From Octopus vulgaris (lineage: Eukaryota), in contig OX597823.1 in NCBI GenBank assembly GCA_951406725.2, positions 24,676,001 to 24,740,000 on the forward strand: a DNA stretch of 64,000 nucleotides, in the 5' to 3' direction. Both the position numbers and the translations under genes were made by a program. How positions within the stretch are numbered: position 1 is the stretch's first letter; the number at the start of each line of letters is the position of its first letter. The notes below the pieces were generated by a model. It had not been told where the DNA came from. It ran no database searches and saw only the letters and a program-made list of their open reading frames with translations. This document shows, piece by piece, positions 655 through 63,485 of this stretch.

Positions 655-894
655 TTACTAAGATCTATTTTACGAGAGTAAAAGATGCAATTCTGGATGT
701 ACCTGGAAAAACTTTGTTGAGAAAAAAAAATGTGACAACAGAAGTCTGTGCAGATAAATGTTTGTCTGACAAAACTTGTTTATCATTTGAAATAACTAAA
801 GGAAGTGGAAAATGTTATTTATCAAGGGAGACTGCAGCTACCTCCAAGAAAATGAAAGCAGCCAAAGACAGGGATTACTACCAACGAGTAGATT
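655..894 (+). CDS. Exon A1, PAN/Apple-like domain type A
   Basis: ttctAG|TTACTAAG...GTAGATT|GTaatt; 240 nt; [14 protein letters not shown]...[16 protein letters not shown]...KCYLS...DYYQRVD, C-x3-C-x5-C-x-SF...C-x-L pattern. Confidence 0.9.
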
Positions 895-1170: not shown

Positions 1171-4100
1171 AAGAAAATACTTGTTACTTTTCTTAAACAT
1201 ATTATTATTATTTTTTTTTTTCTTCTTTCAAATTTGCTTCCATTTCTTGCCGAGTGTCTTCCCGACCCCTAGGGCAAAGAAACTCATAGTATACATTGGT
1301 AGGCCATTAAACCAAACTAAATGGTTCGTTCATTTTTTTTTTTTAAAGTTAAATTAAAATACATGAGCAGCAACAGTTCTCACATCGACAATGCTCTTCT
1401 CAATATGTGTGATGTACCAGTTAAGACAATCTTTTGCACTTCTTGCAGGGATGGTAAGCCAGGGATCATTCTCATATAATTTTCGGTTCCCTTCTTGATC
1501 ATTCCTAGTGCTCCTACGATCACTGGTATTGTAACCGCCTTGAGATGCCACATTTTCTCAATTTCAATGAGTAGGTCTTTATATTTTCTGAGCTTGTCAA
1601 ACTCTTTTGCTGAGATATTATGATCACAGGGATGCTCATGTCGATCAATATGCAAACTTTATTGTTTTGGTCTTTCACAACAATATCTGGTTTATTGGCC
1701 TTGATGGTTCAGTCTGTATGTACTGGAAAGTCCCACAGAATGGTTACACTTTCTCCTTCAGTTACAGCCTCAGGGTGGTGATTATACCACTTGTCGGCAG
1801 TTTTGATATTGTAATGCCGACTTATTAGCCAGTGGAGATATTGGCCAACTCTGTCATGTCTTAATTTATACTCCACTGGTGCTAAGACTTTACATCCAGA
1901 GATTAGGTGGTCCACTGTTTCAATCATGTCGTTGCAGAATCGGCATTTTGGGTCTGCTCCATTTTTCATCACATTGGCCTGGTAGTTCCGGGTTAATAGG
2001 CTTTGATCTTGAGCAGCCAGGATGAAACCTTCGCTCTCTGCTTTTAGCCCTGAGCTCCGTAGCCACTGATGGGTTTGCTTCTGGTCAACATCAGCTTGTT
2101 TGCTGCGGGTCACATATTTGCCGTGCAGAGGTTTCTCCTCCCACCTATCAGCCAATTGCTCGTGCGCTTTTTTCATTGCCATCATTTTCACCTTCTTTGC
2201 AACAATAGTTGCCGTACTTCCCTCGGGTTGTTCAGTTTGGGTATCCTGCACGAGATCAATAGCAAATTTTTTGCTTTCATTTATGATAGAATGAAGCTTC
2301 TTTCGTCTCTCGTGATTTTCCACGAGCTTTAGCATCCAGTCATTCGATATTTCGAGATATTTGGCCAGTCCAATTGTGGTTGTTTTGTAAGCTAGTTCAA
2401 ATTGGATCAGGCCTCGACCTCCTTGGGCTCTGGGAAGGTAAAGGCGATCTACGTCTGCCTTTGGGTGGTGCATCCTATTACAACTCAGCAGCTTGCGTAT
2501 TTTCCTATCTATATTCTTTACTTCACTCATATTCCAGTTCAACACATTGTAGCTATAAGTAACAACTGGAACTGCTAAGAAATTTATAGCTAACACCTTG
2601 TTACGTGCATTTAGTTCAGATTTCAGGACTGCACGAACTCTCCTATAACATTCCTTCCTGATCTTCTCTTTCATGCTTGCTTGCTGAATACCAGAGCCTT
2701 CATTTATCCCTAAATATTTGTATGTTTGTTCTTGCTCAAGCTCTCTTATGACTGTGTCAACATCTAACACGACTGAATTTGTGGTCTTCACTTTCCCTTT
2801 TTGGAAAGTGGCCTTGGCACACTTCTCAAGTCCAAACTCCATCCCGATGTCATTGCTGAATGCTTTCACGGTGCGCAATAGGCCTTCAAGTTCATTATTG
2901 TCTTTACCATAAAGTTTTAAGTCATCCATATAAAATAGATGGCTTATTTTTTTATTGGCAATTTTATACCCATATCCTGTTCTGTTTAATTCACTTGTAA
3001 GGGGTATTAGGGCTATGCAGAATATTAAAGGTGAAAGTGAGTCACCTTGAAAAATTCCACAGTTGATGTTTATATTTTCTGAGGCAAGTACTCCATTAGA
3101 GTGGTATAATTGGAGATTCGTATTCCACAACGACATATTGTGCATCAGGAAGTTTGAAATCACAGGGGAAATTTTGAAGATGTCCAGCGATCTCAAGATC
3201 CATGGATGCGGTATACTGTCGAAGGCCTTTTTATAGTCAATCCATGCGGTGCTGAGATTTCTGCGCTTGTTGTGACAGTTCTCAAGGATCCTACGATTGA
3301 TTAACAGTTGATCTTTGCATCCATAAGAGCCTCGGCGGCACCCTTTTTGTTCAATGGGGAAAATATCGTTCTTCTCCATGAATGCATATGTTTTCTCCGC
3401 CAGGATAGATGTTAGGATTTTATATGTGGTGGATAGACAGGTTATAGGCCGATAGTTTTTTGGAAGGTTGGTTTCGTTATTCTTTGGGAGTAGGTAAGTA
3501 ATGCCACTTGCTAACCATTCAGGTGTTTTCTTTGGGTCTCTCATAATTCCATTGAGCAGCTGAACTAGCTTACCGTGTGCGCACGGGAGCGATGCGAGCC
3601 AGAAATTCGGCACCCTATCTTTACCGGGGGATTTCCAATTATGGGTCTTCGTGAGTGCCTTTCTTAGGTCTGCTATTGTGATGTCTTCCCATGCTTGTTG
3701 TTGTAAATTTTGGTAGGATCCTTCAGTTTGTATAATCCAGTCTGCATTTATGTTGTACCTCTTCTTGTCACTCCAAATCCTTTTCCAAAAGTTTTGAACT
3801 TCTTCCATGGGAGGGGGGTCTTTAACGGTTACTTTCTCCTTCCCTATTTCACTGTAGAATTTTTTGGCATTGGATGTGAACAGCTTATTTTGCTTGTAAA
3901 ACTTGTTTCTCTTCTCAAATCTTCGTATTCTTTGGGCTTTTGCTTGGACTTTTTGTTTCAGCGTTTCTTTTATTGATATCAGTTCTTCTCTTGGTGAGAT
4001 CCAAATTTTCTCTTCATCTTTCTTCTTGTTCTGGATCTTACATCATTTCCACATATTAGTTCATTTAATATTGATATTTCCCCTCTCATAAATTCAATCT

Positions 4101-5681: not shown

Positions 5682-8226
5682 TAGTACCGCCTGATTGGCA
5701 CTCATGCCAGTAGAATGTTAAAAGCACATCTGAGCATAATCATCGTCAGGGCCATGAATTGCCTTCCGTTCCAGTGGCATGTAAAAAGCACCATTCAAGC
5801 ATGATCATTGCCAGCACCACCTTACCGGCACATGTGCTGGTGGCACGTGAAAAACAACATTCAAGCGCAATCGTTGCCAGTGCCACCGGACTGGCTTCCA
5901 TGCAGGTAGCACGTGAAAAACACCTTTTGAGTGTGGTTGTTGCCAGAACCGCCTGACTGGCCCTCGTGCCAGTGACATGTAAAAGCATCCACTACACTCT
6001 CTGAGTGGTTGATGTTAGGAAGGCCATCCAGCTATGGAAACTTTGCCAGATCAGATTGAGCCTGGTACAGCCTTCTGGCTCACAAGTCCTCAGTCAAACC
6101 ATCCAGTCCATAGAAAGCAGACGTTAAATGACAACGACGATGATGATATTTATTTATTCATGCACACATGTGTGTGTATGTATGTATGTGTGTGTTTGTG
6201 TGTACCTAAGTAATTTAGTATGTTTCTATGCATATTATATAGTTTGTTAGAAATTCCAGTAATGTTTTAGCCAAAAGTCAAACCTTTGTTCTTGAACTAA
6301 AAATTCCAAATACATACATACCTACGTACATACTTATGTATATGCACAAAAATATTTTCCTGTAATATGAACGAATCATATTGCCAAAAATATTTTGTTT
6401 TAACATTAACAACTCTTATTGCCAAAAATAAAACCACCAAGTTGGCAGAAACCTTAGGCCACTTACTTGCCTAAGCTTTATGTGCAAGCATCATACTGGC
6501 TGTCTCACCCAATCCTTCAGAATCATTGTGGATCCAATGACATAGTGACTGATGAGGGACCAGTTAGAGAAAAGATATTATGGGAAGGTAATAGATAACT
6601 TTTGAAAACAAAGCTGTTCTGTCCACAGGTCAGAAAGCACCACAGAATCTTTGTGATAATGTTGCCTGATTATAAGAAAAAAAAATACATTCAAATTTAT
6701 TCCCACTCATGGCTTCTGAAGTCTTTGCACTTGGCAAAAGTACATGCTACTTTGTTTGTTGCCGTTGAGAAGCTCACAAAGATCTGGGCAACTATCCTTA
6801 CACTTACAATCATCATCACCATCATCGTCCTTTTCATCATTTAAAACAAATTATGCAACAGATGCTATATAATATTTAATGTGTGTGAATATAAAATGCC
6901 TTTCTTGTTTTCTTTCATTTCTTCTTTATCTAGCTGATGATGATGTTTTAACATTTAAAAAAACTGCCATACCAGGGCATGATACATTTGATCAGATTGG
7001 AGGAATCAGTTTAAAGGAATGTGATCATGCTTGCCTTCAAATTCCAGGATGTAAATCTTATGAGTATCATGAAGCAAATAAATCCTGTATTCCATCTAAT
7101 GAGACTCTCCTGACTTATGACCTTAAACCCAACAAAGATGGATGGGATATATATATCATGAACCCAGGTCAGTGGAGTGTAATTCATTTAATTTTATGTG
7201 TGTTTGCATGCATGCGTCTACATATACCATATGTATTATATGTATGTTTATAATACACACACACCCACGCACACAGAGATACATATATACCTCAGTTCAA
7301 GGGAATACTCTAGCTTATGTAGATATGGCTTGTATATAACACTGAAAGGTAAAAATGATATACCAATAAAATTCATTAATCAATATATCACATTCACTTC
7401 ATTGTATATCAAAATTAATGGAGTAATTTTGTTAACATGACAAATGCTCCAGATTGAATAGCATTGTACATTGCACAATATGTTCTAAATGGAGGTGTAG
7501 TCAAATCCTATTTTATGGACTTAACCATGTTCTAAAATAAGTTGAAAGGTAAGCTACAATAAATCAGCATGAACTTTCTGGACAACCCAATGCAATGCAC
7601 TTAATGGAGAAATGCACTTCAGAACAGCACATATTTCTGAAGCAGAAAAATTCAAACTATAAGTGTAATTACATCATAAAATAATGATATAATATGCTTT
7701 ATCTTCAGGTATGACACCACTTAGATAAAATCAAATTCCACGTTGAGTATTGATGCAAATATTAAGTGTTTTATGAAATAACTACACTTATGATTTGAAT
7801 TTTTCTGCTTTGGTAATGTGCTGTATTTAACTGCATTTGTTCATTATTATTATTGATATGGCAGTTTGACCAAGGGAGCCCAACAGAGTAAGTAATTAGT
7901 TTAAAACTGGGTTCTGGGTTCAGTTTGTTACATGCATGTGTGTGTGTATGAGTGTCTGTGTATGAGCATATGTACACACACACACACATATATATATACA
8001 TTATCCAAAATTTAAAATAGTGGAACAGCTAATATGTAAGCTACATATGTTTCTTAAGAAGCTGAAGTTCATTACATAATTATTATGTACCAATGTCGTT
8101 ACTTATATAAATTGGAAAACATCACACTAGAGGTCCACTGCAATCTATCCTTAACATTTTTTAATAAGACTTTTATTACCTGAAAACACCCCATCTCATA
8201 TATATATATATATATATATGTATATG

Positions 8227-11900: not shown

Positions 11901-14900
11901 AATTTCAAAATCTAAAAGTGTTTTTATCTCCATTCCAACATTGGAGCTTTGTATTTTTGTTAGATACCAGCTTCCTTCTTACAGAAAGTCTTCAAATAAT
12001 TAAAAATAGAAGAAAATTATACACATATATGTTTCTGTATGTGTGATCAAATTCCTTCCAATTGATTCACACAATGTTTTGTTTTAACATTGTCATAATC
12101 TCCTCATTTCCACCCTCCTCCTAAATTGCACACACCATTGATATCAATTTTTGTTTTCAATTCCAGCTAATGATAAAATAAACTGTGGACCACCAAGAGA
12201 CATTGCTGGTGCATCAAAATCCTGCACTTCCAGCAACTACAGAGATAAAGTGATCTACACATGTCCACTGGGAGAAAAACTAAAATCAAAATGTGAAAAG
12301 GACAGCAAATGGACTTCATTAGATTCTACCTGTAAAGGTAATGCAAATAGCTTCTCTCTCTTTTTATCTCTGTCTATGTAATTTTGTTTTATTTTTATGC
12401 TAAATGTTTTTGTCAGAGTAGGACTGGCTGACTCTATGGCAATTTCTGCAGTGATTATGGGGGGTGGGAGGGAGAACAGAAGCTATCCTCACTTCAAAGA
12501 CCTTCCCAAATACTTGCAATAGAGTGGACATCATTTATTCTACCCAAGGGCCAAGTATTAGATTGCATGATGGATTAAGTCTACCAATCAAGTAGGAAAA
12601 ATGTGGAAGTTTCTCCTTCCAGCAGGCTTCCACATAGCTTTCATCTACCAAATTTCATCCTTAGTTGTGGAGTAAATTTTTAACCACATAAGCAAGACTC
12701 CACTCAGGACCACAGAGTTGTGAACTAACCTTCTTAACCTCACACTCATACCCAAAGGATTCTATGTGTGTCTTCTCTTAATTTCTAACTTTTTCACTAG
12801 TACCATGCATCACCATCCAAAACTCTGTACAGCATAGTGCTGTAGGTCCTTCACCAGGATTCAGCAATCCACTGAAAGTCTTCTAATGCACTAATGATTT
12901 TTTCTATCCACCATTGTTAATTATTCTTTCTACCTTAGACTCAAGGCTTGAAATTTTACAGGAGAGACTAATCGATTACATCAACTCCAGTGTTTGATTG
13001 GTATTTCTTTTATTGACCCCAAGGAATGAAATACAAAGTCAACTTTGGCAGAATTTGATCTCAGAATGTAATGACAGATGAAATGCCGCTAAGCATTTTA
13101 CTTGCCAGGGACACATTTCTGCCATATCTCTACCTTAAATACAGCTAATAATAATAACAACAGTTTTTAATTTATTCACAAGGCCATGAGTTTCTGATGT
13201 CTTGAGTTTAGTTTTTACCACTATCAGGTAATAGCTCTCTAGACTTTCTTTATCTCATCTTAATCAAGCATCTATACATTCAGAATATCCTCCTCCACTG
13301 CTAATTAGTTCACCCATGTAACAGACACTTTTTACAACCTCAAGGGGGCTACCTGGAAAATCCAATTCCCATGTACCCTTAATGTTTATTATTCCTGCAC
13401 ATCTGCCACATATAAAGACAACTTTTCTGTTAACTTTCCAGTAACCTTCCACTGCACTTCTCATATGTCCATACGTTGCACTGAGTACTTCATGTGGAAT
13501 TCCTATCAACACTTTTCCTGCTTATTTAGCAAGGCACACACAAAATATACATTCACCATTGGTACCAATTTCTGTTTTCAATTTCAGCTTATAAAGACAT
13601 TGACTGTGGAAATCCAAAGGACATTGCTGGTGCAGAAAAGTCCTATGAAACCACCACCTATAAATCTGAAGTGACCTATACTTGCCCAGAGGGAGAAAAA
13701 CTAAAGTCAATATGTGAAAAGGACAACAAATGGTCTCCAATTGTGGAAACTTGTAAAGGTAACATATGCTTCTTCTTTCTTGTTCTCTCTGTCTATGTAA
13801 TTTTTTTGATGCACAAGGTTTAGTTGTGAAGTTAATTTTTAATCATCCAGAAATAACTCTACCTTGTACCTAATGTCTGACAAGAAAACTTACTATCTCC
13901 ATAGCTATACTACAGCTCATCTTGATAGATTTTCTCTTAACTTCTAGCAGGAAATTTCTCTACCATACTTTGTGCTATCATCCAGAACTCTGTAAATATA
14001 ATGTCTGAGTTTTTCTTTACTAAAATGTAGCAATCCCCTAATACAGACTTCTGATGCACTTGTTATCTTTCATTCAACTACCTATAATTATAATACTACT
14101 AATAACAATAATGGTTTCTGATTTAGGCACAAAGCAGTAGTTTTTAATGGATTGCATTTAGTCAAAACCATGAACACTGCTAATTGCCTGGCACATTGTT
14201 TTATTCATCCCCACAATATTGAAAGCCAAATTTGACCTTGGTTTAATCTGAACTGATGGCCAAAAGAGCCTGATTACTTATTGTAAAGTATTTCTTCTAA
14301 TACTCTAATTAGTGCTCATTATCATCATCATTTAACATCAATTTTCTATGCTGGCATGGGTTGGACAGTTTGACAGTGTCCAATTAACTGCAGAACTGCA
14401 TTAAACCCAATGTCATCTTTGACATGGTTTCCATCACTGGATTCCTTTCCTAACACTAACCACTTTAGAGTGTGTACTGGGTGCTTTTCCTTGGTACTAG
14501 TAAGGTCACCAATAACTTGCAACACAAAATAAAGAAAGGGAAACAAATATACCCGTCAGCTGAGTGGGAGTACATTTGAGAGAGTGAGAGGTAGATTTGT
14601 GCTGTGTGTTGAAGGTTAAGGTATGATAGAGTGACAAGCATAGGTGTCTTACTATGGAGAAGCTGCACAGCTACTCTATATTACGTGATGATGGGTAAGA
14701 GTAACTGGAAGAGACATAAAGTTGGTGATAGAAGGGTACTAGATCTTGCTCTCAAGGTAAAAGATGATGAATATAAGGGAGAATATTGATTGTGGGTGAA
14801 GAAAGAAGAAAAGGATGGGTAATTTCATAAGGATGTGGGAAGAGATTGGGCTAGAAGTGGGTGTTTTGAGTGATAAAAGAAGGTGAAGCTTTGATTACCG

Positions 14901-41871: not shown

Positions 41872-41902
<31 letters not shown>

Positions 41903-41950
41903 TCTATATATAAATATGTATATATAGTGTATATATACAAAGTGTATATA

Positions 41951-41993
<43 letters not shown>

Positions 41994-49459: not shown

Positions 49460-50363
49460 ATAAGTAGCTAGGAGTATTAGAATCTGACAGAATACTCTGT
49501 TCATATATTTATACTAATGCCTCAGTTTCTCATCATCTTTTCATTTTCATTTCCATTTTCATTTTAATTTCATTTTCTAATTTTTAAATTTGTTCTTTTT
49601 CTTTAAGATAGTTTTTTAATGTTTTTTTCTCATTTCATTTTTCATTCTTCATTTTTCAATTTCTCAATTTTTCATTTTGTCAGTTCTCCACGGTATTCTC
49701 TTCATTTCTCTATTCTACCATCTTTCACCCCTAGCCTTTGGTTTCCCCATCAATAAACCACTAAGTATCACCTCCTTCTTCTACTTGCTCATTCTTTCCT
49801 CCTAGCTCGGCTTTTCTTCTCTCAGCATAGCACCCTTTCTCACAATCTGACTATGGCATCACCCTGTCACATCTCTCTGTACTATATGTTAACTTTGTCC
49901 TTCCTGAGCTGATAAAATATTAATATAATACTAGTCATGTTTAGAAGCCAATTTCATTGACCAATTCTAACCCCAAATATTTGGTCTACTTTCTGTTAGA
50001 AACTAATATCATTGATATTGCTATTGTTGCTATTTTTCATTGGCCTAAATTTTATTTTAACTCTAGATTCTGAAACCCATTTTGTGAAAGTAAAAGATGC
50101 AGTTCTGGATGTATCTGGGAAAAGATTGTTGCACAAGAAAAATGTAACAGCAGATGCCTGTGCAAAACGATGTTTTTCTGATGAAAAGTGTTTATCATTT
50201 GAAATAATTAGAGAAGAAGGAAAATGTTACTTATCAAAGAAAACTGCAACTAAATCTAAGAAAATGAAATCAGACAAAAACAGAGATTACTACCAACGAA
50301 TACAATGTAATTATTCTTAGTATTTGTTTGTTGGATTCTATTTTCCTCTTTTTCTGAAATTTG

Positions 50364-50403
<40 letters not shown>

Positions 50404-52881: not shown

Positions 52882-52930
<49 letters not shown>

Positions 52931-54070
52931 GTTAAGCAGTGAACTGGCAGAGTTGTTAGCACACAGGAGAAAATTTTTAGTGGCATTTTGTGTCTTTATA
53001 TTTTGAGTTCAAATTCTGCTGAGGTCAACTTGACCTTACATCCTTTGGGTGTCATTGAAGTAAGTACCAGTTGAGCACCAGGGTTGATGTAATGAACAAT
53101 ACCTCTTCATCAAAAGTTCTTGTTTTGTACCTATAGTAGAAAGGATTGTTACTACTACCAGCAATTGACAATTTGAATAAAATATATTAAAAACCATCTG
53201 GTGCATTGTTTTATAAATGGAAAATATATTGTAAAAAATCAATCCATTCATAAAATTATTTTTTAGTGTAATACACGCCCGTAAAAATAAATGTGAATCC
53301 TTAGAATAGAGTAAATAAATGTGAAGTACATAATGTCATAAACAAAAACTCACCAGAATATTTCAGTTATAGACAATCCTTTTGTACATCCCTCTCCTGA
53401 CAGTCTTCTTTTGTTTTAGATTGAATGGCCATAACAACACTTGACATGCTTGAGAGATTATCAGCCCTACAAAATCACACCATTAGAGAAGACATGTTCA
53501 AACAAATATATAGCCTGCAGCCTGAGCACTGAGACAAGGTTCCACATAAGTCTGAAGACGGTCCACAGCTCACATACATTCTGATTAGGTTGCCATTTTG
53601 TGGATTAGTCATTTGTTTATAATAAATTGTCCAATTACAAAGTTATGCACCATATTCTTTACAAACGTGTGTATGTGATTGGGTGAGTGGATGAGTATAA
53701 AATATACTTCTTATTTTTTTCTTCTTTTCTAGCTGATGACCAGCCTGTTGTATTGAGAAACGTTAGCTTTCCAAAGCAGGTTACTTTGAAACAGCTTAAG
53801 GATACAATCTTAAAGGAGTGTAAGAAATCCTGCCATCAATATCCAGGATGTAATTCTTTTCAGTACAATAAGAAAGACAAGTTATGTGATCTGAGTAATG
53901 CGACTCATTTGACTAATGAACTTAAACCCAATGATGGAAGTTGGGATGTATTCATTATTAATCCAGGTCAGTAGAGTCCTTCCCCAGAAACAGCTCTCAA
54001 GTTAAGAAATTATACATTCTCACCCTAGTATTCTGTATTTTTAATACTCCATCTAAATTTCTCTCTCTCT

Positions 54071-54152
<82 letters not shown>

Positions 54153-55094
54153 CTCTGTATATATATATATATATAATCAAACATAAGCAACAAAAATAAC
54201 TTCGGTAATTTGGTACAATCATTTCACGCTACATCATTTTATTAAATACTGTAAGTATTACAACAGTTTTAAAATGTTGAGCAATCATCAGCCATTAATA
54301 GAGATTTCCCATTAATACATAATTTTCATATAAATTGATAACATTATAGAGAAGGAAGATATATAGACAAAGATATCGATTTAAATTTTAAGAACATTCA
54401 GGTAGTAGAGTTTAGCAACTGACTGAAGAATATTCAGAATATTCAGTTATTTTGAACTGCTAGAAGGTTGGGAAGAAGGATCAGTTGAAAGAAGACAAAA
54501 AAGATTTTCTATTTATAGAAATAGGGTTGAAATAGATGTCAGAAGTTCTTTATAAAGAAATTAAGGTAGAGAGGTAGTTGTAATGCTGTAGAGGCTGTAT
54601 ACTACTATTTGGCAAACAGATTTTGGTGTCCTCAGAGTATCTGAATGTTTTAAGTACCCCCACCCCATCCTTTCCTTTTTATATATGTAAAACATTCCCA
54701 CCAGATTCTTTCATTTCTATATCAAACTTTGTACAGAAAAGATTTGCAACATTTAGAAAGCTGGCAGTTTCTAAATTGCTGTGTTTTGCGCACATCAACA
54801 ATGACTGCATGTCTTTTCATTTATTGTTTTAACATTTTAGCTACCATGGAGTATCTGAAATAAATAAAAGTTTTTTAATTGCTTTGAAGAGAATAATATA
54901 CTGAAAATTAAGTGTCCTGGAATACTTTTTGTACCTTTATATAAAGCACATATATCAAGGTACTTTTGTACCTTTATATATATGCTTTCTCAAAATAATT
55001 TCACAGTATTATGGCATTCTTACAGAATGTCCATGTTAAATATGATGTACAGATTGCTATTCACTACTCATACTGCTTCTGTCACTAAAATATA

Positions 55095-55129
<35 letters not shown>

Positions 55130-58100
55130 ACGCACGTGCGCATGCGTGTGATTTGATGACATGCATGCCATTGCTTATCTTTATTATTTTGCACTCTCTG
55201 GCAGAATCGTTAGCGCGATGGACAAAATGCTTAGTGGTATTTTGCCCATTGGTACGTTCTGAGTTCATATTCCACTGAGGTCGTCTTTACCCTTCATCCT
55301 TTTGGAATCAATATAATAAGTACTGGTTAAACACTTGGGTCAATGTAATCAAGTCATTCCCTCCCTCCAAATTGCTGCCCTTTATTATTTTGCACTCCAA
55401 GGTTCTTGCAGTGGAGGTAGACTACACACTGAAGTACAAAATGGGAGGTAAACTACACTCTAAAGTGTAAATGGCCTGGTAGATGACATACTAAAATGGT
55501 ACCAAAGTCAAACTATGCCCACTGGATTACTTAACATTCATTTACCATGAAATAGTTATTATGTGTATCTTCTGAAATTCTTATAACCAGACATAGAACA
55601 CTTATTGCTCAGGTATTATTGGATAAGGATAAAAGATTACAGAACCCATCCTGTCTTCAGTGTCTCTGTCTTCCCCTCCTCGTCTCTCTCTCTCCCTCTC
55701 TCTCTCTCTCACACCTTGTTTTCTTATCTTTCTCTTTTTCTCTTTCACTTTGCCTCTCATATATATCTCTCTATCTCTAAGATTTATTTATTTATTTATC
55801 ACTTACTTTATCATTTTATATATATTTTTCTTTATATAGTTTTACTTTTTCATCCTTTTTATTATTGACCATTTAAGTTTTTTCTTTCATTCTTTTCTTC
55901 ATTACAATTCTACCTTCTCTTCCTTTTTTCTCTTTTCCTTTCCCTTTCTCTTCCTTTTTCTCTTTTCCTTTCCCTTTCTCTTCCTTTTTCTCTTTCCCTT
56001 TCTCTTGACTTTTTGTCTCTCCATTTCCCTATGACACTTGCTCTCTATCTACTCTCCTTTTCTAACTGTACACACAAGATATACTGTGTGTGTGTGTGTG
56101 TGTACTTATAGGTTTTGCCACCTATACAACTCCAAATGTTTGACCACCATAACATCATGCAACAAAGTGTTCCCCTTATGATCCTTTGTGATTAAGCATC
56201 CAGTTACTTGTGGAACATCCAATTCATGGTTTTCAAACAACCACAACAGTTAAGTGTACAAGGGGAACAAATGATATAAACTTGTATTTTGCCTGTGTTG
56301 CTCTGTATACCATAACCAATATTACTACTAAGTACAGTAGAAATCACACCACTATACTGGATATAAACTGGATGAAGATAATCTACATAGAGCTCTAAAC
56401 TCAACAGTAGCAGTTGTACATCTAACTGTACACACAAGACATACTCTGTGTGCACGTGTGTGTGTGTGTGTGTGTATACATGTAAATGTCTTCAGTTTGT
56501 TTCAGTCAATATCTTTTATTCTAAATTTCTCATTATCTCCTTGTTCTCACCCTCCTCCTAACATATTCGCAACTGATATCAGTTTCTCTTATCACTTCCA
56601 GCTCATGCAAAAGTTAACTGTGGACAACCAAAAGATGTTGCTGGTGCACTTAAATCCTATGATACTACTACCTATAAATCTGAAGTGAACTATACTTGTC
56701 AAGATGGAGAACAATTAAAGGCAGTATGCCAAAAGGACAAGAAATGGACTCCAGAAGTGTCTTGTAAAGGTATTGTAAATAGGTTTTCTCATTTGGACTC
56801 TGTCTTTGTTTTACTTTTGTGTTAAATGTCAATGTTAGAGAAATTCTGACAGATCTCCTCAAATTCTTCCATCAAAGAACAGAAAGTGTGTAAGTGTATT
56901 CCCTCTAGCAGGCTTCTGCTAGTTTCCATCCACCAAATTTCATCCACAAGCCTTAGTTATGAATCAAATTTTTAACCAGGCAGACAAAACTCCACCCACT
57001 TCCACATTGTTGTTAAGTAAATTTATTACTTCCAAACCTCAGCTCATCTTGTTTTTTTTCTTAATTTCTATCTTTCTTAAACATTGTGTCATCACCTGAA
57101 ACTCAATACAATGCATTGCACTAAATCCTTTTTACTAGAATTCAACAATAATCCAAAACGGATTTCTGATGCCCTAAATTATAATAATACAAATAATGAT
57201 AATGGTTTCTGATTTTTGGGGGGAAAAAAAACAAGAATTTTTTATAGGAGTTTAGTCAGTATCATCCATTCCATTATTTGACTGTTATTTTGTGTTATTT
57301 ATCCCCACAAGATTAACAGGTAAAGTTGACATTGGTTGGATTAGTAAAGCATTTCTTCCAATGCTCTAATTAGTACACATTTATGCATTTAATATAAAGA
57401 TAAGAATGATAATGTAATCCTTTTGAATGTAGAAGGATATCTGACTAGGATCATTTGAAGAACTCCACCATCATTCTGTACTCTAAGGACATGTACCCTT
57501 TCTAATAATTGTTCTCTGTTAGACAGGTTTATGCACTATGGACCCCAAACACTAACTATTTTTTTCACCTTCATATTACTTTCGATAATTTCCCTTGAAA
57601 AGAATATCACTTTTTCCATCCTTATCTTTTTTACAAGTAAAACTTTAAAAATACAGATTAGGGATTGACCAAAGAGAAAAGTTCCCATTGTTAGACTTTT
57701 CAACCTCATCCACCATGCAACCTCTTTTGCTATAGCTACCAGACAGAGGAAAACTATCTTCTTTACTCAGTTCAATGAGGACGGGGAGCAATCATCATGA
57801 TCGACTTGACTGACAGATTTGTTGTTGTTTAAAATAAATCTACAAATCAATAATGCCTGGACACTAAACAAGTGCATGTAAAATCAATTTCTTGTACTGT
57901 GCACATTTGATGTCACTTCTGAGACTAGATTTTATCTTGGACTAGTAGATCTCTTTGGTAGCATTACCAAGAACTCCAGGAAGTTGCTCATAGTATTCCC
58001 ATACCAAAATGAATTTTTAAAACAAACTTGCTACCTCGTTCACATCAAAGCTTAGAATATCCCTGAGAATATCAATGTTCTTTCCACTCCACTAATCTCA

Positions 58101-61100
58101 TGGATATTACTAGAGTGTAACACCCATCAATTCCGTTGCCCAGGTTAGGTTTCATCCAGCTTACTTGGGATTATATTAGATAATCAGGCCTTCACTTTTT
58201 GTGAGAGTAGTGTTACTGAGTATGATTTCATTGATATATCTAACATGTGTGTCCATTTAAAGGGCTTCCATGGTGACTGGACTGTGGTAAATGTTGAACT
58301 TAATATTGCAAGTTAACAGATCTGACACAGCTTTTTCCCAGGTACAATTTGTTCAGCACCACCAACTGACACTTCACATGGTCATCATGATGTTAGTGGA
58401 CAATATTTGATCCAGGGTTAATATATTTATTATAACAATAAAACACACATTGACGCACAGATGCTAGGGCTGGGCATAGACAACCTGAACCTCACAAGTG
58501 TAGGAAGGAAGGGTTGCATGAAGTTTTCATAACAGTAGTTCCTTCAGAAGAAAAGAAAATTACAATCTCATTGTAATTAATTATGTATTCATTACTCAAG
58601 CACAAAGCCAAACATAATTAGAAAAAGGAATGACTTTATGTGATATTTATGTCTTTCTGAAGTTTGCTAATTGTCTATGTAAAGTGAACTGACTTAAACT
58701 GAGAATCAAACCCAGATCATTGACTCACAACACTCTGTAAATATTTATACTAAAAGAACAACTAAGGAAGAATACTCAAGATCACTTTTTGCATGGAAAG
58801 CACATAAGAAAGTGGTTACTTCTAGAACCAAGTTGTTATGTCTAATTAAAATTACACCTTCAGTGGCTGAAGTAATATGTTAATGTAAGTAATATTATGT
58901 TAATGACTTATTCTGGTCATTAAATTCAGGAGAGACAACCTCATAGAATTAATCAGTTTTTCTTTATTTCACTGAAAGTATAATTCTAATGAATTAAAAT
59001 TTCTTAGCTACTTACATTAAGGTTTGAGTATCAACATTTACTACAAATTATATCTGTTCATTATAAATAATGAAAGTTAATTTATTTTAGTTTTCAAAGA
59101 CAAAACATCATAAAGTCAGTAATGTGATGGGTGATAATCCATGTGATAACTAACCACATTTATTCATTTCCTTTTACATTCCTGGTTCAAATCCCACTTG
59201 GTTATAATTCACCTTTCATATTTCTGAAGTTGATAAAACCAGCTCTATTCAACTACTGAGTTCCATTCGATTTCATGAGTCATTGCAGAATGCGTGAATT
59301 TATGTTTAAGTTAGAAACTGTTATCATAAATATTGGTAACATTAACAATAATTATAAATATTTGTGTTAGTGACAGATTAAGAGAATCATCAGAACATCA
59401 GAAAAAATGTGTTGTGGTATATGTTGTTTCTCTTTGACTTCTGAGTTCAGATCTGGCTGATGTCAAATTTGCTTTGTCAGGGCCAATAAAATAAAATACC
59501 AGTCAAATGTAGGCTCCAATTTTACTGATTAACTATTACTTTTGTCGTTCTTTCTACATTATAAATTAGAATTATTGTTGCTGTTGTTTCTATTCCTATA
59601 AATATTTCTTAAATTCCAGTTACTCGGAAATATTTTGTGAAAGTAAGAAGTGGAACTCTGGATGTACCTAAGAAATTGTTGTGGAATAAGGAAAATGTTA
59701 CAGTAGAAGACTGTTCAGCAAAATGCCTTTCTCAAAACAATTGTTTATCATTTGAAATAAATAAAGAAAATAGAAAATGTTACTTATCAAAGGAAACTGC
59801 AGCTACCTCCAAGAAAATAAAATCGGCCAAAGACAGAGATTACTACCAACGAGTAAAACGTAATTATTCTTTGTTCCTCTTTTTCTGAAATTTGTGATTC
59901 TATTTGTACTTCATAATATATAGATCTATATAATTAACCTCGATAGCATTCATAACAACTTGACAAAAGATTTTGTTAAAAACTTTGAAGCACTTGAATA
60001 ATTTTTCAGTTTGAAGCACAAAGGCTTTATTGTCACAGCTAAGGCAAATGCTTAAAGGCACAAGAGAAGAAAAGCCATTGATAGACTCTTGTGACAGGGG
60101 TACAACATGGCAACAAAACAAGAATTCAGTCATTGGAATGCCATGATGGCCATGTGTTACTAGATCACAAGCAAATATGAGTGGCTTTTCAGCAGCATTT
60201 TGCTCATGAGTGGCAAGTTGGGTCACGGAATGGATTTCAGTGCCCACCCCAAAACCCTGCTATGATGCACGGCAAGAAAAGTGCTGCATTTTTGAAACAA
60301 TAGGAACCACATTGATAATTTTTGCCTATAACTCTTCTGAATGCAAATTTCAAGATTCAACCCAACATGTTAGTCAAATTTTGGCACTTGCCCAATTGTC
60401 AGATGGGTGATGTGCAAACATGCATGATCACAAACATATCTATCCATGATAACCTCCATTTCATGTGATACATAACAGAAAGGATGGACAATAAAGCTTG
60501 TATGGATAGGGCCTTGATCAATTTAGATGAAACAAAAGCTTCTGAAAAGGTTGATAAATAATACCTGACTATTGTCCTCAAAACAGTGAGTTTCACTTCC
60601 AATTTTGCAAGTTGGATTACCATAATGTACAACAATACCTGCTTCATGGTTACAGTGAATGGCCACTAACAGGAACAATTCAGCATCACTCAGTATGTCA
60701 AGTTTGTTCTAGGAAGGACCATACTGTTCAACAGAGGTGGCTTGTTTCCTTCGACCATGCTCGCCACTCTTACCCATTTTTCAATAAATTTTCTGAGCAA
60801 CAGCACTTACCTCTCCACTTTCAATTTTCTTTTCAAGTGAAAATTGGAAAGGAGAACTTGGCCAAAGAGAAAGGTGTCTGTTTTCAGCCCTTTCAATCTG
60901 GTCTAAAACACAATCTATTTTTCTAAAGCCATCACACTAATAGAGCTTCTTTGATCTTCCTGGTTAAAGGAATATGGTGGGATGATTTTCACAATGGACT
61001 CAACTGATAGCTTAGGCTATCTTACATACAACAGCAGGTGTTCAAATCTTAACTCCACAAGCCAGTAATGCACAGGCAAATGACAAATGCATGCAGAACA

Positions 61101-63485
61101 GTTTCACCCCTTTGCATACAACAAGTTTGGCCAATGTCATTTCCATGGCTGTAGAATTCATCTGGAAGTGGCAATTCTCTCCTGGAAGCATTGCTTGGGT
61201 AGAGATTTCTGGAAATTATCCATGGAGCACCAGACTAAGAGTCCTCTGGAACAAACCAACCAGTATATTTTCTTTAACACTCAGAGTTTTTTTGACAATG
61301 TAGTCATTCTTGCTCTTCACAAATCACTGAAAGAACATCAATATGGAACTTCCAGTAACCATATTTCCTAACTGGAAGCAGACTGTAAGTGCTAGACAGC
61401 ATTCAGATGCCAAGCACCCTGTCTGTATCTTTCTTTGGTGCAGAAATGCATCTCTGTCAAAGTGATCTGTGAAAACACACATTTGACAAACGATGAAAAG
61501 GAATTGCTGGAAATGTTGCAGCTTTTGTGGGTGTCAAGCGCATCTTCAACCATGGCCTGCTTAGTCCACCTTTCAGTGAGTGTTGATATGAAATGGAGCA
61601 CCTGACTAGTGAAGCACATCACTTCTACAAAAAGTAGATGTTCCACTCCATTCAGAAAATGAGCTGGAGTAGGTGTGAAAGTCATGTGGTAACATATGAT
61701 GGGGTTGATGTAATTGTTTGCCACTTCTGCCCGACCTTTCAGGCTTAGCATTCTCTCATTTCTGGGAGATACTGGTTACCTTGCTCATCACCTCATCCCA
61801 GTTCTTCTCCACCTGGAGCTCTGGTCCAAATCAGACCCCAAGTAATTTAATCTGCCTGACCATCCATACCCACAAGGCTGTTGAACAGTATGGTCCTGCC
61901 TCCCCGGGAACTGAGCTGCACACATTGTGGCATTTTGCCCATCTTGATGTTCTGAGTTCAAATCATGCTGAAGTCAACTTTTCTTTTCATCCTTTAAGGA
62001 GTCAATATAATAAGTACCACCTGAGCACTCAGGTAAATGTAATCAACTAGCCCTCTCCTCACAAAATTTCAAGCTTTGTGCCAACAGTAGAAAGAATCCT
62101 TAAGGCAGCAAGCCAGCAGAATCATTAGCATACCAGACATAAAGCTTACTGGCATTTCATCCATCTTTATGTTTTGAATTTGAATTTCCCACACGGTTGA
62201 CTTTGCCTTTCATCTTTCAGCAGTCACTGAAATGAGTTGCAGTTGAGCACTGGGGTCAAAGAAACTGACTTACATCTCCTCCTCACAAAACTTCACATCT
62301 TGTGCCTATAGGAAAACGAATCATCATCATCATTACAGCATTATTACTCTTTCTAAGACAAAGAGCTGGCAGAATTATTAGCAAACCAAACAAAATGCTT
62401 AGTGCATTTCTTCTGGTTTTACATTCTGGGTTCAAATTCCTTTCAAATTACCTTTGCCTTTCATTATTTTGGATCAATAAAATGGATATCAGTTGATCAT
62501 TGGAGCCAGTGTAATTGACTGAGCCCCTAACTGAAAAGTTCAGTCCTTGTGCCTTTAGTGGAATGAATCTTTATTTTTAACACTAATATTATGTTGTATA
62601 TTTAAAACTTTAGATAATTATGTACGCCTTACAACTAAAATTTTGAAGACAATATTCGAAAGCCATTTGGTTCATTATTTTCTAAACAGACAATTTGATA
62701 TAAAAATACAATACACCCATGAAATTATTTTTCTGCATGAGATACCCTTCTCAGAATTAATGTACAATCTAGTATACCATGAGACACACATGGAACCTTG
62801 CCTCAGTTTTAAGTTGTAGATAATATATTTGTACACCCCTCTTCTGATGGTGTGCTTTTGTTTAAGATTAAATGACCATAAGGATACTTCACATGCTGGT
62901 TGATGATCTTTTGAATTATGTTAAGATTCTACAAAAGCACACTGTTAGATAGGAAGGCACAAATGGATTACATGCAACTTAAATTTTGAAGCAAGGTTTC
63001 AAATGTGTCTGAAGATGGTCTACATTCACATGAACTATGACTAAGTTGTCATTTTGTGGATCAATTATTTGTTTATAATACAGGTATGTCCAACCCATGC
63101 TTGCATGGAAAATGAACATTAAATGATTTCTGTGATGATGATGAGGATCACCATTTAAAACAAATTATGTGACAGATATTATATAGTATCTAATATGTGT
63201 GTGTGAATATAAAATGTCTTTTTTGTTTTCTTTCATTCCTTTTTTATCTAGCCGATGATGATGTTTTTACACTTAAAAGGACTACCATACCACTTCACGA
63301 TACATTTGGTCGGATTAATAGAGTCACTTTAAAGGAGTGTGAACGTGCTTGCCTTCAAATTCCAGGATGTAAATCATATGAGTATCATGAAAATAAAGAA
63401 TTCTGTAATCCATCTAATGAAACTCACCTGACTAATGACCTTAAACCTGACAAAGATGGATGGGATATATATATCATGAACCCAG
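655..63485 (+). CDS. Internal part of a large multi-exon gene encoding a repetitive extracellular-type protein (PAN-PAN-Sushi)n; 15 exons, 1074 codons in window, both ends outside window
   Basis: Three recurring exon classes of fixed length (240/234/171 nt) with polypyrimidine-AG acceptors and GT donors, all phase 1-1, conserved Cys patterns, no stops within exons or at junction codons. Confidence 0.88.
1200..4194 (-). mobile_element. 5'-truncated R4/Dong-like non-LTR retrotransposon (RT + CCHC + restriction-like endonuclease), fairly young but disabled
   Basis: 699-aa ORF 3808-1709 with [40 protein letters not shown]...H...C. In-frame TGA then KPDIVV, and a frameshift before the endonuclease C-terminus (1655-1380). 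A-rich/TAA 3' tail near 1200-1220. Confidence 0.92.
4195..4323. repeat. (ATT)n microsatellite
   Basis: About 43 near-perfect ATT units between two retroelements. Confidence 0.97.
4324..4802 (-). mobile_element. 3' fragment of a second R4/Dong-like family (RLE domain plus 3' UTR)
   Basis: RPDIVV...FLIDVSVP...[31 protein letters not shown]; (ATT)n on both sides; short tandem duplication at its 5' junction (about 4732-4800). Confidence 0.85.
4880..5230 (-). mobile_element. 3' fragment of a third R4/Dong-like family
   Basis: [23 protein letters not shown]...[17 protein letters not shown], following an (ATT)n/(TAA)n tract at about 4803-4875. Confidence 0.8.
5578..5682. repeat. (TA)n/(GATA)n compound microsatellite
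   Basis: Direct reading. Confidence 0.95.
5686..6147 (+). mobile_element. 3'-end copy of the RTE-like LINE (tandem-repeat UTR plus GAT tail)
   Basis: Repeated gtgccagtggcacgtaaaaagcacc units, then ctacactct...gagtggttg...ttaggaaggccatccagc and (GAT)n; homologous to 40950-41483. Confidence 0.8.
6934..7167 (+). CDS. Exon B1, PAN/Apple-like domain type B
   Basis: atctAG|CTGATGAT...AACCCAG|GTcagt; 234 nt; [20 protein letters not shown]...SC...GWDIY. Confidence 0.9.
9144..10127. mobile_element. Degenerate non-autonomous TIR element (MITE-like), about 1 kb
   Basis: 9144-9237 (tggaatttcagaatagattgcttacataagttggattttctc...ttaccatgcgcttcaaatga) is the reverse complement of 10030-10127; no ORF. Confidence 0.7.
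11130..11820 (+). mobile_element. 5'-truncated RTE-like LINE 3' end
   Basis: Starts at the ORF terminus motif (aagacctgggatgaggtggtgaag = KTWDEVVK) and is collinear with 40600-41460. Confidence 0.85.
12167..12337 (+). CDS. Exon C1, Sushi/CCP domain
   Basis: ttccAG|CTAATGAT...TGTAAAG|GTaatg; 171 nt; CGPPRDI...VIYTCPLG...CEKDSKW...TCK. Confidence 0.88.
13200..13530 (-). mobile_element. RTE-like LINE internal fragment
   Basis: [11 protein letters not shown]...[19 protein letters not shown] matches the PHD-like/post-RT part of ORF 39100-40662. Confidence 0.75.
13588..13758 (+). CDS. Exon C2, Sushi/CCP domain (absent from the supplied ORF track)
   Basis: tttcAG|CTTATAAA...TGTAAAG|GTaaca; 171 nt; [56 protein letters not shown]. 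Confidence 0.88.
15530..16130 (-). mobile_element. Ancient Tx1/L1-like LINE C-terminal remnant (homologous copies at about 29440-30050 and 57530-58170)
   Basis: Degenerate zinc-knuckle-like E.ILHAL..C and [12 protein letters not shown]; same collinear block in three C-to-A introns. Confidence 0.5.
17562..17801 (+). CDS. Exon A2, PAN/Apple-like domain type A'
   Basis: ttgtAG|ATGCTCAG...GTAAACT|GTaatt; 240 nt; [13 protein letters not shown]...[16 protein letters not shown]...KCSLS...DYYQRVN. Confidence 0.88.
18380..18930 (+). mobile_element. Degenerate Tx1/L1-like LINE 3' remnant
   Basis: Frames give TLPVQD*L...HRCMQSE / ETVLYALV*C (zinc-knuckle-like) and [10 protein letters not shown]. Confidence 0.45.
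19240..19460 (-). mobile_element. R4/Dong-like RLE fragment
   Basis: Minus frame reads [19 protein letters not shown]...[18 protein letters not shown]. Confidence 0.65.
19560..21150 (-). mobile_element. Degenerate Ty3/Gypsy LTR-retrotransposon pol remnant (RNase H + integrase) and 3' region
   Basis: [10 protein letters not shown]...[20 protein letters not shown] (integrase core), [19 protein letters not shown] (RNase H-like), [10 protein letters not shown]; many stops. Confidence 0.85.
21823..22056 (+). CDS. Exon B2, PAN/Apple-like domain type B'
   Basis: tttcAG|TCAATGAA...AACCCAG|GTcagt; 234 nt; [33 protein letters not shown]...WDIY. Confidence 0.9.
22420..22679 (+). mobile_element. Short RTE-LINE-related 3' element / SINE
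   Basis: gagaggaagatccatcaagccaagt...cactcggtgtggttagtgttaggaagg...(GAT)n, same tail as the LINE at 41300-41483. Confidence 0.75.
22711..23838. repeat. Foldback plus partial tandem repeat (about 490-bp unit), candidate non-autonomous Penelope-like/retrozyme element
   Basis: 22711-23171 is the reverse complement of about 23286-23740; 23172-23350 is directly repeated at 23661-23838; (TA)n on both flanks. Confidence 0.85.
23511..23589 (+). ncRNA. Candidate minimal type I hammerhead ribozyme
   Basis: cctcca-CTGATGA(23519)-extended stem II (ttat/ataa; aatatgtga/ttgcatatt)-GAAA(23571)-C-AATT-GTT-tgggg; stem I ctcca/tgggg; palindromic CAATTG stem III. An inverted copy lies at 22862-22940. Confidence 0.55.
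24030..27130 (+). mobile_element. Old, heavily decayed and rearranged RTE-like LINE (APE endonuclease + RT)
   Basis: [49 protein letters not shown] motifs with many stops; interrupted at about 24840-25265. Confidence 0.85.
27290..27500 (+). mobile_element. RTE (BovB-like) LINE C-terminal fragment, different family
   Basis: [12 protein letters not shown]...[17 protein letters not shown]. Confidence 0.55.
28282..28452 (+). CDS. Exon C3, Sushi/CCP domain (absent from the supplied ORF track)
   Basis: ttccAG|TTATTACA...TGCAAAG|GTaatg; 171 nt; [56 protein letters not shown]. Confidence 0.88.
31460..31699 (+). CDS. Exon A3, PAN/Apple-like domain type A
   Basis: ttccAG|TTTCTAAG...ATAAATC|GTaatt; 240 nt; [16 protein letters not shown]...KCYLS...DYYQRIN. 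Confidence 0.9.
32270..33720 (-). mobile_element. Degenerate R4/Dong-like RT fragment
   Basis: [54 protein letters not shown]; same family as 47850-49370. Confidence 0.85.
34149..34355. mobile_element. Small MITE-like element with about 45-bp terminal inverted repeats
   Basis: tatacagacaatttattatcaaaagcacagtccattcacaaaaatat ... atatttttgtggatggactgtgcctttgataaattgtctgtata. Confidence 0.7.
34706..34939 (+). CDS. Exon B3, PAN/Apple-like domain type B
   Basis: ttccAG|CTGAAGAT...AACCCAG|GTcagt; 234 nt; [20 protein letters not shown]...FCDRSNVT...GWDIY. Confidence 0.9.
35540..37750 (+). mobile_element. RTE-like LINE, APE endonuclease + RT, 3'-truncated, disabled
   Basis: VGTLK...[36 protein letters not shown], then [23 protein letters not shown]; stops and frameshifts. 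Confidence 0.92.
38420..39040 (-). mobile_element. RTE-like LINE 3' fragment in opposite orientation
   Basis: [12 protein letters not shown]...[15 protein letters not shown] followed by the reverse complement of the common 3' tail. Confidence 0.8.
39060..41483 (+). mobile_element. Young 5'-truncated RTE-like LINE: open 520-aa RT ORF, long 3' UTR, (GAT)n tail
   Basis: ORF 39100-40662 with [64 protein letters not shown]; inserted in a TA-rich site. Confidence 0.95.
40958..41302 (+). repeat. About 60-bp GC-rich tandem repeat (about 6 units) in the LINE 3' UTR
   Basis: Unit gtggccgttgccagcctcgcctggcccccgtgccggtggcacgtaaaagcaccatccgttc. Confidence 0.9.
41520..43353 (+). mobile_element. Non-autonomous Helitron-like element, copy 1
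   Basis: 5' TC, 3' CTAG, subterminal hairpin acccg...cgggt, no target-site duplication, internal about 300-bp duplication (42140/42445). Confidence 0.8.
43354..45297 (+). mobile_element. Non-autonomous Helitron-like element, copy 2 (head-to-tail)
   Basis: Junction CTAG|TCAATATCTATAAATC; hairpin acccactc-gta-gagtgggt; ends CTAG|T. Confidence 0.8.
45560..45730 (+). CDS. Exon C4, Sushi/CCP domain
   Basis: ttccAG|CTCACCTC...TGTAAAG|GTaaca; 171 nt; CGPPKDIVG...VSYICP...[15 protein letters not shown]. Confidence 0.88.
46137..46230. repeat. 30-bp tandem repeat x3
   Basis: tgatagtttttctcttaatttgtaa... repeated three times. Confidence 0.8.
47300..47700 (+). mobile_element. R4/Dong-like RLE 3' fragment
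   Basis: [20 protein letters not shown]...[12 protein letters not shown]...LQKSLP, followed by (TAA)n at about 47778-47845. Confidence 0.7.
47850..49370 (+). mobile_element. R4/Dong-like element, 5'/N-terminal part, decayed
   Basis: [65 protein letters not shown]. Confidence 0.85.
50067..50306 (+). CDS. Exon A4, PAN/Apple-like domain type A'
   Basis: ctctAG|ATTCTGAA...ATACAAT|GTaatt; 240 nt; [14 protein letters not shown]...[16 protein letters not shown]...KCYLS...DYYQRIQ. Confidence 0.9.
50417..52843 (+). mobile_element. R4/Dong-like non-LTR element (RT-CCHC-RLE), 5'-truncated, decayed, bracketed by (TAA)n
   Basis: [49 protein letters not shown]...LLIDMTV...KYKDLEIE; TAA tracts at 50364-50416 and 52844-52870. 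Confidence 0.92.
52935..53150 (+). mobile_element. tRNA-head-like SINE
   Basis: tggcagagttgttagca (A-box-like)...gagttcaaattc (B-box-like)...aagtaccagttgagcac; many related copies in the window. Confidence 0.7.
53733..53966 (+). CDS. Exon B4, PAN/Apple-like domain type B'
   Basis: ttctAG|CTGATGAC...AATCCAG|GTcagt; 234 nt; [33 protein letters not shown]...WDVF. Confidence 0.9.
54206..54298 (-). ncRNA. Second candidate (decayed) minimal hammerhead ribozyme
   Basis: Minus strand tgg-CTGATGA-t-tgct..catttta..actgt/acagt..taaaatg..agcg-t-GAAA-tgattg-TA-cca. Confidence 0.45.
55197..55379 (+). mobile_element. tRNA-head-like SINE between perfect 18-bp direct repeats
   Basis: ctttattattttgcactc at 55179-55196 and 55380-55397. 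Confidence 0.85.
56602..56769 (+). CDS. Exon C5, Sushi/CCP domain (168 nt, one codon shorter; absent from ORF track)
   Basis: ttccAG|CTCATGCA...TGTAAAG|GTattg; [55 protein letters not shown]. Confidence 0.88.
59620..59859 (+). CDS. Exon A5, PAN/Apple-like domain type A
   Basis: ttccAG|TTACTCGG...GTAAAAC|GTaatt; 240 nt; [16 protein letters not shown]...KCYLS...DYYQRVK. Confidence 0.9.
60270..61870. mobile_element. Tx1/L1-like LINE remnants in two orientations
   Basis: + strand [20 protein letters not shown]...F..NFASWI.IMY (about 60515-60630); - strand LLGVWFGP...NWDEV and [14 protein letters not shown] (about 61400-61850). Confidence 0.65.
61950..62570 (+). mobile_element. Cluster of three tRNA-head-like SINE copies
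   Basis: Three successive copies of the g(a/g)ttcaaat...actttgcctttcatc...agttgagcactgggg motif set. Confidence 0.7.
63252..63485 (+). CDS. Exon B5, PAN/Apple-like domain type B
   Basis: atctAG|CCGATGAT...AACCCAG|GTcagt; 234 nt; [20 protein letters not shown]...FCNPSNET...GWDIY. Confidence 0.9.

Follow-up and report, generated by a model that had tools for sequence, protein, structure and literature searches.

The 64,000-nucleotide stretch of Octopus vulgaris DNA analyzed here (the window; positions 24,676,001-24,740,000 of contig C10 in assembly G000) carries a series of short exons that each encode a single PAN or Sushi domain, and it raises the question of whether these are part of one giant gene reaching well past the window and, if so, what kind of protein that gene might encode. 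An earlier note on this DNA had proposed that 15 such exons splice into a stop-free frame of 1,074 codons. All 15 were found in place on the forward strand (Table 1): five encode PAN domains of one class (PAN-A, or A), five encode PAN domains of a second (PAN-B, or B), and five encode Sushi domains (C). Each is preceded by AG and followed by GT, is divisible by three in length, and is of phase 1-1; together they sum to 3,222 nt without a stop, in the order ABCC ABC ABC ABC AB, with two Sushi exons in the first unit. The domain assignments likewise held: all 10 A and B exons score above the Pfam PAN_1 cut-off and four of the five C exons above that for Sushi, the fifth (45560..45730) reaching 20.1 against 20.7 bits. 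As a control for chance, the cysteine patterns of the two domains were counted over 825,891 bases, giving 212 PAN matches on the forward strand versus 1 on the reverse and 124 Sushi matches versus 0. Three of the Sushi exons (C2, C3, and C5) had been described as missing from the list of open reading frames, and none of these does contain a start-codon ORF longer than 50 aa.

Table 1. Exons of the predicted giant gene, and transposon remnants in its introns, by position in the window
Feature	Position	Strand	Basis
PAN-A exon, unit 81	655..894	+	AG/GT ends, 240 nt; PAN_1 39.4 bits
PAN-B exon, unit 81	6934..7167	+	234 nt; PAN_1 33.8 bits
Sushi exon, unit 81, first of two, fifth cysteine present	12167..12337	+	171 nt; Sushi 27.0 bits
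Sushi exon, unit 81, second	13588..13758	+	171 nt; Sushi 24.9 bits
PAN-A exon, unit 82	17562..17801	+	240 nt, Pfam and splice ends; skipped by public model P0010
PAN-B exon, unit 82	21823..22056	+	234 nt, Pfam and splice ends
Sushi exon, unit 82	28282..28452	+	171 nt, Pfam and splice ends
PAN-A exon, unit 83	31460..31699	+	240 nt, Pfam and splice ends
PAN-B exon, unit 83	34706..34939	+	234 nt, Pfam and splice ends
Sushi exon, unit 83	45560..45730	+	171 nt; Sushi 20.1 bits, slightly below 20.7 cut-off
PAN-A exon, unit 84	50067..50306	+	240 nt; run X2 contig over 50094-50254, 0 differences
PAN-B exon, unit 84	53733..53966	+	234 nt, Pfam and splice ends
Sushi exon, unit 84 (C5)	56602..56769	+	168 nt; X2 record 21 joins exon to next PAN-A
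PAN-A exon, unit 85 (A5)	59620..59859	+	240 nt; spliced join from Sushi exon
PAN-B exon, unit 85 (B5)	63252..63485	+	234 nt; X2 records 22 and 23 begin/end at borders
LINE reverse-transcriptase remnant, intronic, outside gene product	1712..4042	-	RVT_1 E 4.6e-30
LINE reverse-transcriptase remnant, intronic, outside gene product	39022..40659	+	RVT_1 E 1e-32

The introns within the window are 1.25-10.6 kb long and do contain transposon sequence, as had been suggested, in the form of two LINE remnants (Table 1). They also hold a 472-bp inverted repeat (window 22701-23172 and 23287-23749; 93.6%) and a 1.7-kb direct repeat (41713-43366 and 43672-45310; 85%). The claim that the window opens on intron sequence resembling later introns was borne out (1-545 against 58657-59256, 85-405 against 16757-17094, and 87-545 against 30664-31104), as was its corollary that the array continues upstream: the nearest Sushi exon in that direction is at C10:24674085-24674252, and the window proves to hold 15 of 343 intact repeat exons, comprising units 81-85 of 105.

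To map the array, the genome was searched with one exon of each type, and the matched exons, their flanks, and both array ends were rescanned locally; the bases so examined, including the window, number 825,891 and cover 40.6% of the 1,640,556-base span, the remainder being intron between mapped exons. In the genome search, matches to A, B, and C numbered 107, 104, and 134, respectively; every one falls on the forward strand of C10, between 23.27 and 24.98 Mb, and lacks internal stops. The local rescan added two B exons. Three of the resulting 347 matches belong to a small neighboring gene and one is a broken A remnant, leaving an array of 105 A, 105 B, and 133 C exons in 105 units (73 ABC, 27 ABCC, 3 AB, and 2 ABCCC). 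Every one of these 343 exons has in-phase AG/GT ends, phase 1-1, a length divisible by three, four to five cysteines, and no stop; the acceptor reads AAG in five.

Several irregular copies were observed. A short, divergent PAN-B exon at C10:24093506 (201 nt, AAG acceptor) is trimmed further by public model P0007. The broken PAN-A remnant, at about C10:24195819-24196058, has no splice sites and precedes an intact A exon by 1.7 kb; it is the sole dead copy among the 347. At C10:24967597-24968421, one stop-free frame runs from an A exon through the 132-nt intron after it and into a B exon, such that intron retention would preserve the frame. Weak PAN matches on other contigs (4 and 6) were left out of the array count; those at C13:19921939-19981687, C13:76174065-76175093, C17:45997505-46000134, C6:48618695, and C18:43143200, some of them A/B pairs, likely represent other small PAN-pair genes, of which the four-PAN Argonauta protein P0041 may be a further example.

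The small tandem neighbor (C10:23269851-23294202) has nine coding exons and 465 codons encoding a leader-PAN-PAN-Sushi-GON protein, and it is 81-95% identical per exon to GON-Abd-1 of Abdopus, of which it is the ortholog; the public O. vulgaris model of this gene (CAI9728787.1) has merely 385 aa. Homology to the neighbor, and through it to GON-Abd-1, located the beginning of the giant gene: a 55-nt leader exon (C10:23,362,495-23,362,549) followed by a 30-nt micro-exon (23,363,457-23,363,486) upstream of unit 1. The giant's leader is 72% identical in DNA to the leader region of the neighbor, and the two genes agree in their phase-1 donor and in having a micro-exon of 30 nt. The leader is modestly hydrophobic (hydropathy 1.49 over 19 residues), and the signal peptide is predicted by homology. 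Downstream of the final A-B pair are four GON exons (C10:24990060-25003050) with a stop at 25,003,050, so that the giant ends PAN-PAN-GON with no Sushi domain preceding GON. Extension past the window, which the earlier note had recommended as a way to find signal-peptide and terminal exons, thus yields one leader and one terminal domain. The leader region and the first GON exon each occur twice in the genome, one pair bracketing the array and the other belonging to the small neighbor.

Joined in silico, the 349 exons form a frame of 73,059 nt with one stop, encoding 24,352 residues (2.745 MDa, pI 8.94, 13.9% lysine, 272 N-glycosylation sequons). This predicted product is approximately 23 times the coding length of the window, which contributes residues 18,422-19,495. 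No transmembrane segment was found in the 24,352-residue frame, the highest 19-residue hydropathy past the leader being 1.38. The predicted product of this one 1.64-Mb locus is a single secreted chain consisting of a signal peptide, 105 PAN-PAN-Sushi units, and a GON domain. That the array is one gene we consider very probable, and that the full-length product exists, probable. The proposal of a giant, modular, lineage-restricted secreted protein gene reaching past the window is in this respect supported by the genome.

Public annotation of O. vulgaris depicts the locus differently, as at least six consecutive models of 857-4,470 aa (CAI9728790-93, -95, and -96) named SVEP1-like, ADAMTS20-like, or hypothetical, which cover 257 of the 343 exons and within their spans skip 34, 23 of them A exons. 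These models imply an array of several genes, each beginning and ending in unrelated exons of its own that lie concealed in introns, and there is room for such exons in the 59% of the span outside the bases examined, where intron stretches reach 19 kb. However, all six models begin inside domains, the gap from one unit to the next never exceeds 19.4 kb, a genome search for leader and GON exons identified no second copy of either inside the array, and a spliced join (described below) spans a unit boundary. An array of separate genes is accordingly very unlikely.

Neither decay nor misassembly appears to explain the array. In a neutral simulation of 275 exons of modal length, approximately 182 were expected to lose a cysteine or gain a stop, compared with 0 observed, and dN/dS between paralogous exons, binned by protein identity, ranges from 0.42 to 0.73; a pseudogene array can be rejected on these grounds. 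Values near 0.7 among the more distant PAN pairs show loose constraint on surface residues. Assembly artefact is rejected because identity among domains is on average 58% for A and 46% for B and because their order is shared with O. bimaculoides. Seven models from that species map along the array at median identities of 82-88%; all seven domain strings equal the local order, and for 122 of 157 domains the best match lies where the diagonal predicts, although two models fit the diagonal poorly (7 of 24 and 5 of 10). The shared order indicates that the array is older than the split between these species.

Internal similarity records how the array may have grown. Mean domain identity rises at multiples of four units (lags 4, 8, and 12), with an excess at lag 4 of 0.065 for A and 0.123 for B that was reached in 0 of 1000 shuffles for either. 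A four-unit super-repeat makes up much of the array, shifting toward a lag of five in units 85-105. Introns preceding A exons are 64-69% alike across 2.5-3.2 kb (window 28711-31766 against 56862-59918, and 15372-17876 against 57371-59912), and likeness of this length points to duplication of whole units. Within units 49-84, PAN-B domains fall into two alternating subtypes, with identities of 0.66 at lag 4, 0.52 at lag 2, and 0.40-0.41 at odd lags. PAN-A pairs that are 99% identical occur in units 23/27 and 89/94, four or five units apart and with less similar neighbors, and probably reflect recent duplication or gene conversion. The gene would have originated from a small signal-PAN-PAN-Sushi-GON gene by repeated in-frame tandem duplication of its three phase-1 exons, with later duplication in four-unit blocks.

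Close sequence matches came from Octopus only, as eight and three array fragments in two protein searches; in the second, two of the five matches were true SVEP1 proteins (E 4e-4). The best 150 of 685 matches in a profile-free scan of 1.84 billion representative sequences included many GON proteins of 300-420 aa, along with further fragments from Octopus and proteins rich in Sushi domains. Of 30 proteins scanned for domains, several, including two from Patella, have PAN-GON or PAN-Sushi-GON structure, and one PAN-only protein is from Argonauta. No long form from squid or cuttlefish occurred among the protein relatives found. One unnamed 767-aa protein (P0071) combines a match to the VERL-type C-terminal domain family with Sushi repeats and GON, a hint that GON and Sushi modules may occur in egg-coat-like proteins.

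Spliced reads across the predicted junctions would bear directly on whether units are joined in one transcript. A query with exon A5 listed 24 sequencing runs, four with part of the exon and none on record as RNA, and four runs were mapped onto window positions 49,900-63,700. In run X2 (depth 5.3), a 319-base contig (record 21) matches 56,600-56,767 and then 59,618-59,768 with 0 differences; the two-base shift relative to the exon borders reflects an AG common to both sides, and the contig corresponds to the predicted Sushi-to-PAN-A splice, with no exon used in the intervening intron. This junction is the one that separates a single chain from many one-unit genes, and it was seen as a contig in one of the four runs. 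Two further X2 contigs (records 22 and 23) start and end where exon B5 does; one of them shows 10 differences and is possibly derived from a paralog. Depth in X2 falls to zero in five of 30 bins, all intronic, which the DNA-like run X1 covers. For runs X14 and X5, guessed to be RNA, the matches listed include no pieces of exons, which carries no weight as evidence. The call for spliced reads is hence answered at one junction, C5-A5, in a run not on record as RNA.

Symmetric exons throughout mean that shorter isoforms could easily be made, and the locus might be one gene that serves chiefly as an isoform generator, exon skipping yielding many shorter proteins, all signal-(units)-GON, that differ in length and in the surface available for binding, while the full chain remains rare. 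The phase 1-1 structure of 343 of 343 repeat exons is compatible with this, as are the donors of A and C exons, which fit the consensus less well than those of B (4.8 and 4.85 versus 5.9 of 7 positions), and the alternative splicing of Drosophila Dumpy described in passages of PMC2930355. The 34 exons skipped by public models could be read the same way, but these skips may be prediction errors; moreover, exons are interleaved A-B-C rather than clustered as alternatives, the single observed join connects neighbors, and long models of O. bimaculoides and O. sinensis follow the matching order over 57 and 36 domains. We regard a primarily isoform-generating role as rather unlikely.

Homologs of the small sibling carry the names GON-Abd and GON-Sep, which reportedly come from the venom-gland transcript survey of Ruder et al. 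in 2013, a study cited in PMC5554399. In the posterior salivary gland proteome of O. vulgaris (PMC7693380, Table S1, row 1238), a protein group containing R4G2C1 and A0A0L8GSV1 is represented by 18 peptides that cover 43%, and by this entry the neighbor's product is present in that gland. It could follow that the giant extends its sibling's role as a bulk posterior salivary gland secretion, a vehicle for saliva or venom that would make the fluid more viscous or would bear enzymes and toxins and present them to the prey. The link to the gland runs through the sibling alone, however, and duplication often shifts expression; none of the giant's accessions or motifs occurs in the examined part of the PMC7693380 supplement, which gives no peptide sequences. 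A salivary vehicle seems unlikely on this balance.

What the giant might do instead is suggested by the properties of its domains. Modeling of five window domains with AlphaFold, a check the earlier note had advised alongside an InterPro-type search, recovered confident individual folds (mean pLDDT 82.8) with weak overall packing (pTM 0.47); the best structural matches are the apple domains of factor XI and prekallikrein, MIC4, SML-2, and the HGF N domain, in agreement with the PAN scores, and the Sushi domain of a cuttlefish homolog structurally matches CCP modules. Net charge averages +7.4 in PAN-A, -0.6 in PAN-B, and +2.7 in Sushi domains and is at or above zero in 102 of 105 units; PAN-A is conserved and basic, with many conserved lysine and arginine columns, and PAN-B is variable and near neutral. 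The GON domain has no Foldseek match at E 0.001, a wider search being taken up by hits to the Sushi domain, and the resemblance of its N-terminal part to the collagen C-propeptide (profile E about 2e-6) is a lead only. Its region contains 12 cysteines in the giant, the last of them terminal in both species, and 10-11 in the small forms; the terminal cysteine may allow end linkage. A complex prediction for two copies of the P0003 GON region gave no answer either way (score 0.00, with the alignment unused).

Linkers between domains are just a few residues long, which is one argument against a polyprotein precursor that would be cut after secretion into about 105 small, lectin-like PAN-PAN-Sushi units. 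The units do resemble the N-terminal half of the free-standing small protein, and multi-apple parasite adhesins do undergo processing. No conserved dibasic or furin-type site exists at the junctions, though: KR or RR occurs at two of 342 exon junctions, RxxR at none, and neither dibasic pair at any of the 102 C-A junctions. A cleaved precursor is barely plausible.

We favor, with a probability of roughly 0.55, a secreted, polycationic, multivalent filament that would act in the extracellular matrix or in the secretion of a gland by cross-linking acidic glycans. The observations behind this reading are the exon set and its order, the open frame, the unique start and end, the order in a second species, and one splice at a unit boundary. 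The giant would be translated as one chain, uncut and unanchored, and at 3-4 nm per domain its beads-on-a-string length would be about 0.7-1.1 micrometre. Conserved, lysine-rich PAN-A domains would grip sulfated or sialylated polymers, PAN-B domains would supply ligand variety, Sushi domains would act as spacers, and the GON end could serve in folding, export, or end-to-end linkage; multi-point binding of acidic glycans would then produce a cross-linked secretion or matrix. With not quite even odds, we further propose that the array encodes a single 2.75-MDa, approximately micrometre-long secreted protein, longer than Dumpy and perhaps the largest protein known from the animal secretory pathway; a salivary-gland gene would have been expanded 105-fold to give this titin-like filament of super-repeats, the scaffold of an octopus-specific gel, glue, or matrix.

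If made at full length, the protein would be one of the largest that occur outside animal cells, with a 73-kb reading frame spread over 1.64 Mb and about 690 disulfides to fold and export. The locus would also capture the passage from a small gland protein to a giant filament within one lineage, with the unexpanded parent still adjoining and the duplication history recorded in super-repeats. Annotation as at least six misnamed fragments means that octopus expression and proteomics studies cannot have counted the giant properly. As a candidate structural component of octopus secretions or matrix it can be put to the test, and it provides a natural setting in which to study what GON domains do where no protease is attached.

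Titin, at about 34,000 aa, is longer than the giant. Dscam-type arrays consist of clusters of same-type alternative exons, one of which is used; here the types interleave A-B-C and a neighbor-to-neighbor join was seen, and a mutually exclusive array of that kind was rejected. SVEP1 has only Sushi domains in common with the giant, whose public fragments P0010 and P0011 have no vWA, HYR, pentraxin, or EGF domains in Pfam (as compared with the true SVEP1 proteins P0012 and P0013), and identity with SVEP1 was likewise rejected. The PAN/apple fold is common to factor XI, prekallikrein, Toxoplasma MIC4, Sarcocystis SML-2, and the N domain of HGF, of which the last binds heparin and SML-2 and MIC4 bind galactose; the giant differs in having 210 four-cysteine PAN domains in pairs split by Sushi, without protease or kringle, and its predicted match to the glycan-binding apple lectins is by fold alone.

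ADAMTS9, ADAMTS20, and GON-1 share a C-terminal GON domain with the giant (Pfam E 6.3e-33 in P0003), a domain reported to act in ER-to-Golgi transport (PMC3338439). Their metalloprotease, disintegrin, and TSP1 domains are absent from the giant's modeled exons, and PAN, Sushi, and GON are the sole real domains that Pfam finds in P0003. ADAMTS identity was therefore rejected; the modeled frame consists of leader, A, B, C, and GON exons, and the public "ADAMTS20-like" label derives from GON alone.

Dumpy of Drosophila, at about 23,000 aa and 2.5 MDa and with a repeated three-module unit in the portions of PMC2930355 and PMC8520396 that describe it, is a parallel in form: both are giant extracellular chains of more than 20,000 aa built of small disulfide modules in a repeated triad, the octopus giant being known as a gene model. 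Dumpy has an EGF-DPY-EGF unit, 78 exons, a ZP domain, and a membrane anchor, whereas the giant has PAN-PAN-Sushi, one domain per exon, 349 exons, a GON end, and no membrane anchor. With no shared domains, the resemblance is best treated as analogy rather than homology.

The earlier note recognized no characterized protein with a repeated PAN-PAN-CCP trimer. This stands for the giant, of which the open-access literature searched contains no description: PMC4280546, PMC7656900, PMC12607849, and bioRxiv 2026.04.09.716377 contain no GON or PAN passage, and the literature linking GON domains with PAN and mollusc, or with venom, appears to concern ADAMTS. It does not stand for the module, which is known as the N-terminal half of small cephalopod GON proteins. 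GON-Abd-1 (UniProt R4G2C1, Abdopus, 465 aa), GON-SepT-2 (R4G7D8, Sepioteuthis, 503 aa), and GON-Sep-2 (R4FJA6) have a leader, PAN-A, PAN-B, one to two Sushi domains, and GON in the same order as the giant, the squid GON-SepT-2 being leader-A-B-C-C-GON; across the GON exons, the giant and GON-Abd-1 share 48-72% identity. These proteins have a single unit in about 290-500 aa, as against 105 units in 24,352 aa. Judged from its exons, the giant corresponds to its 465-residue neighbor with the internal unit multiplied 105-fold and is, by apparent descent, a paralog or variant of the cephalopod PAN-PAN-Sushi-GON proteins rather than a typical member.
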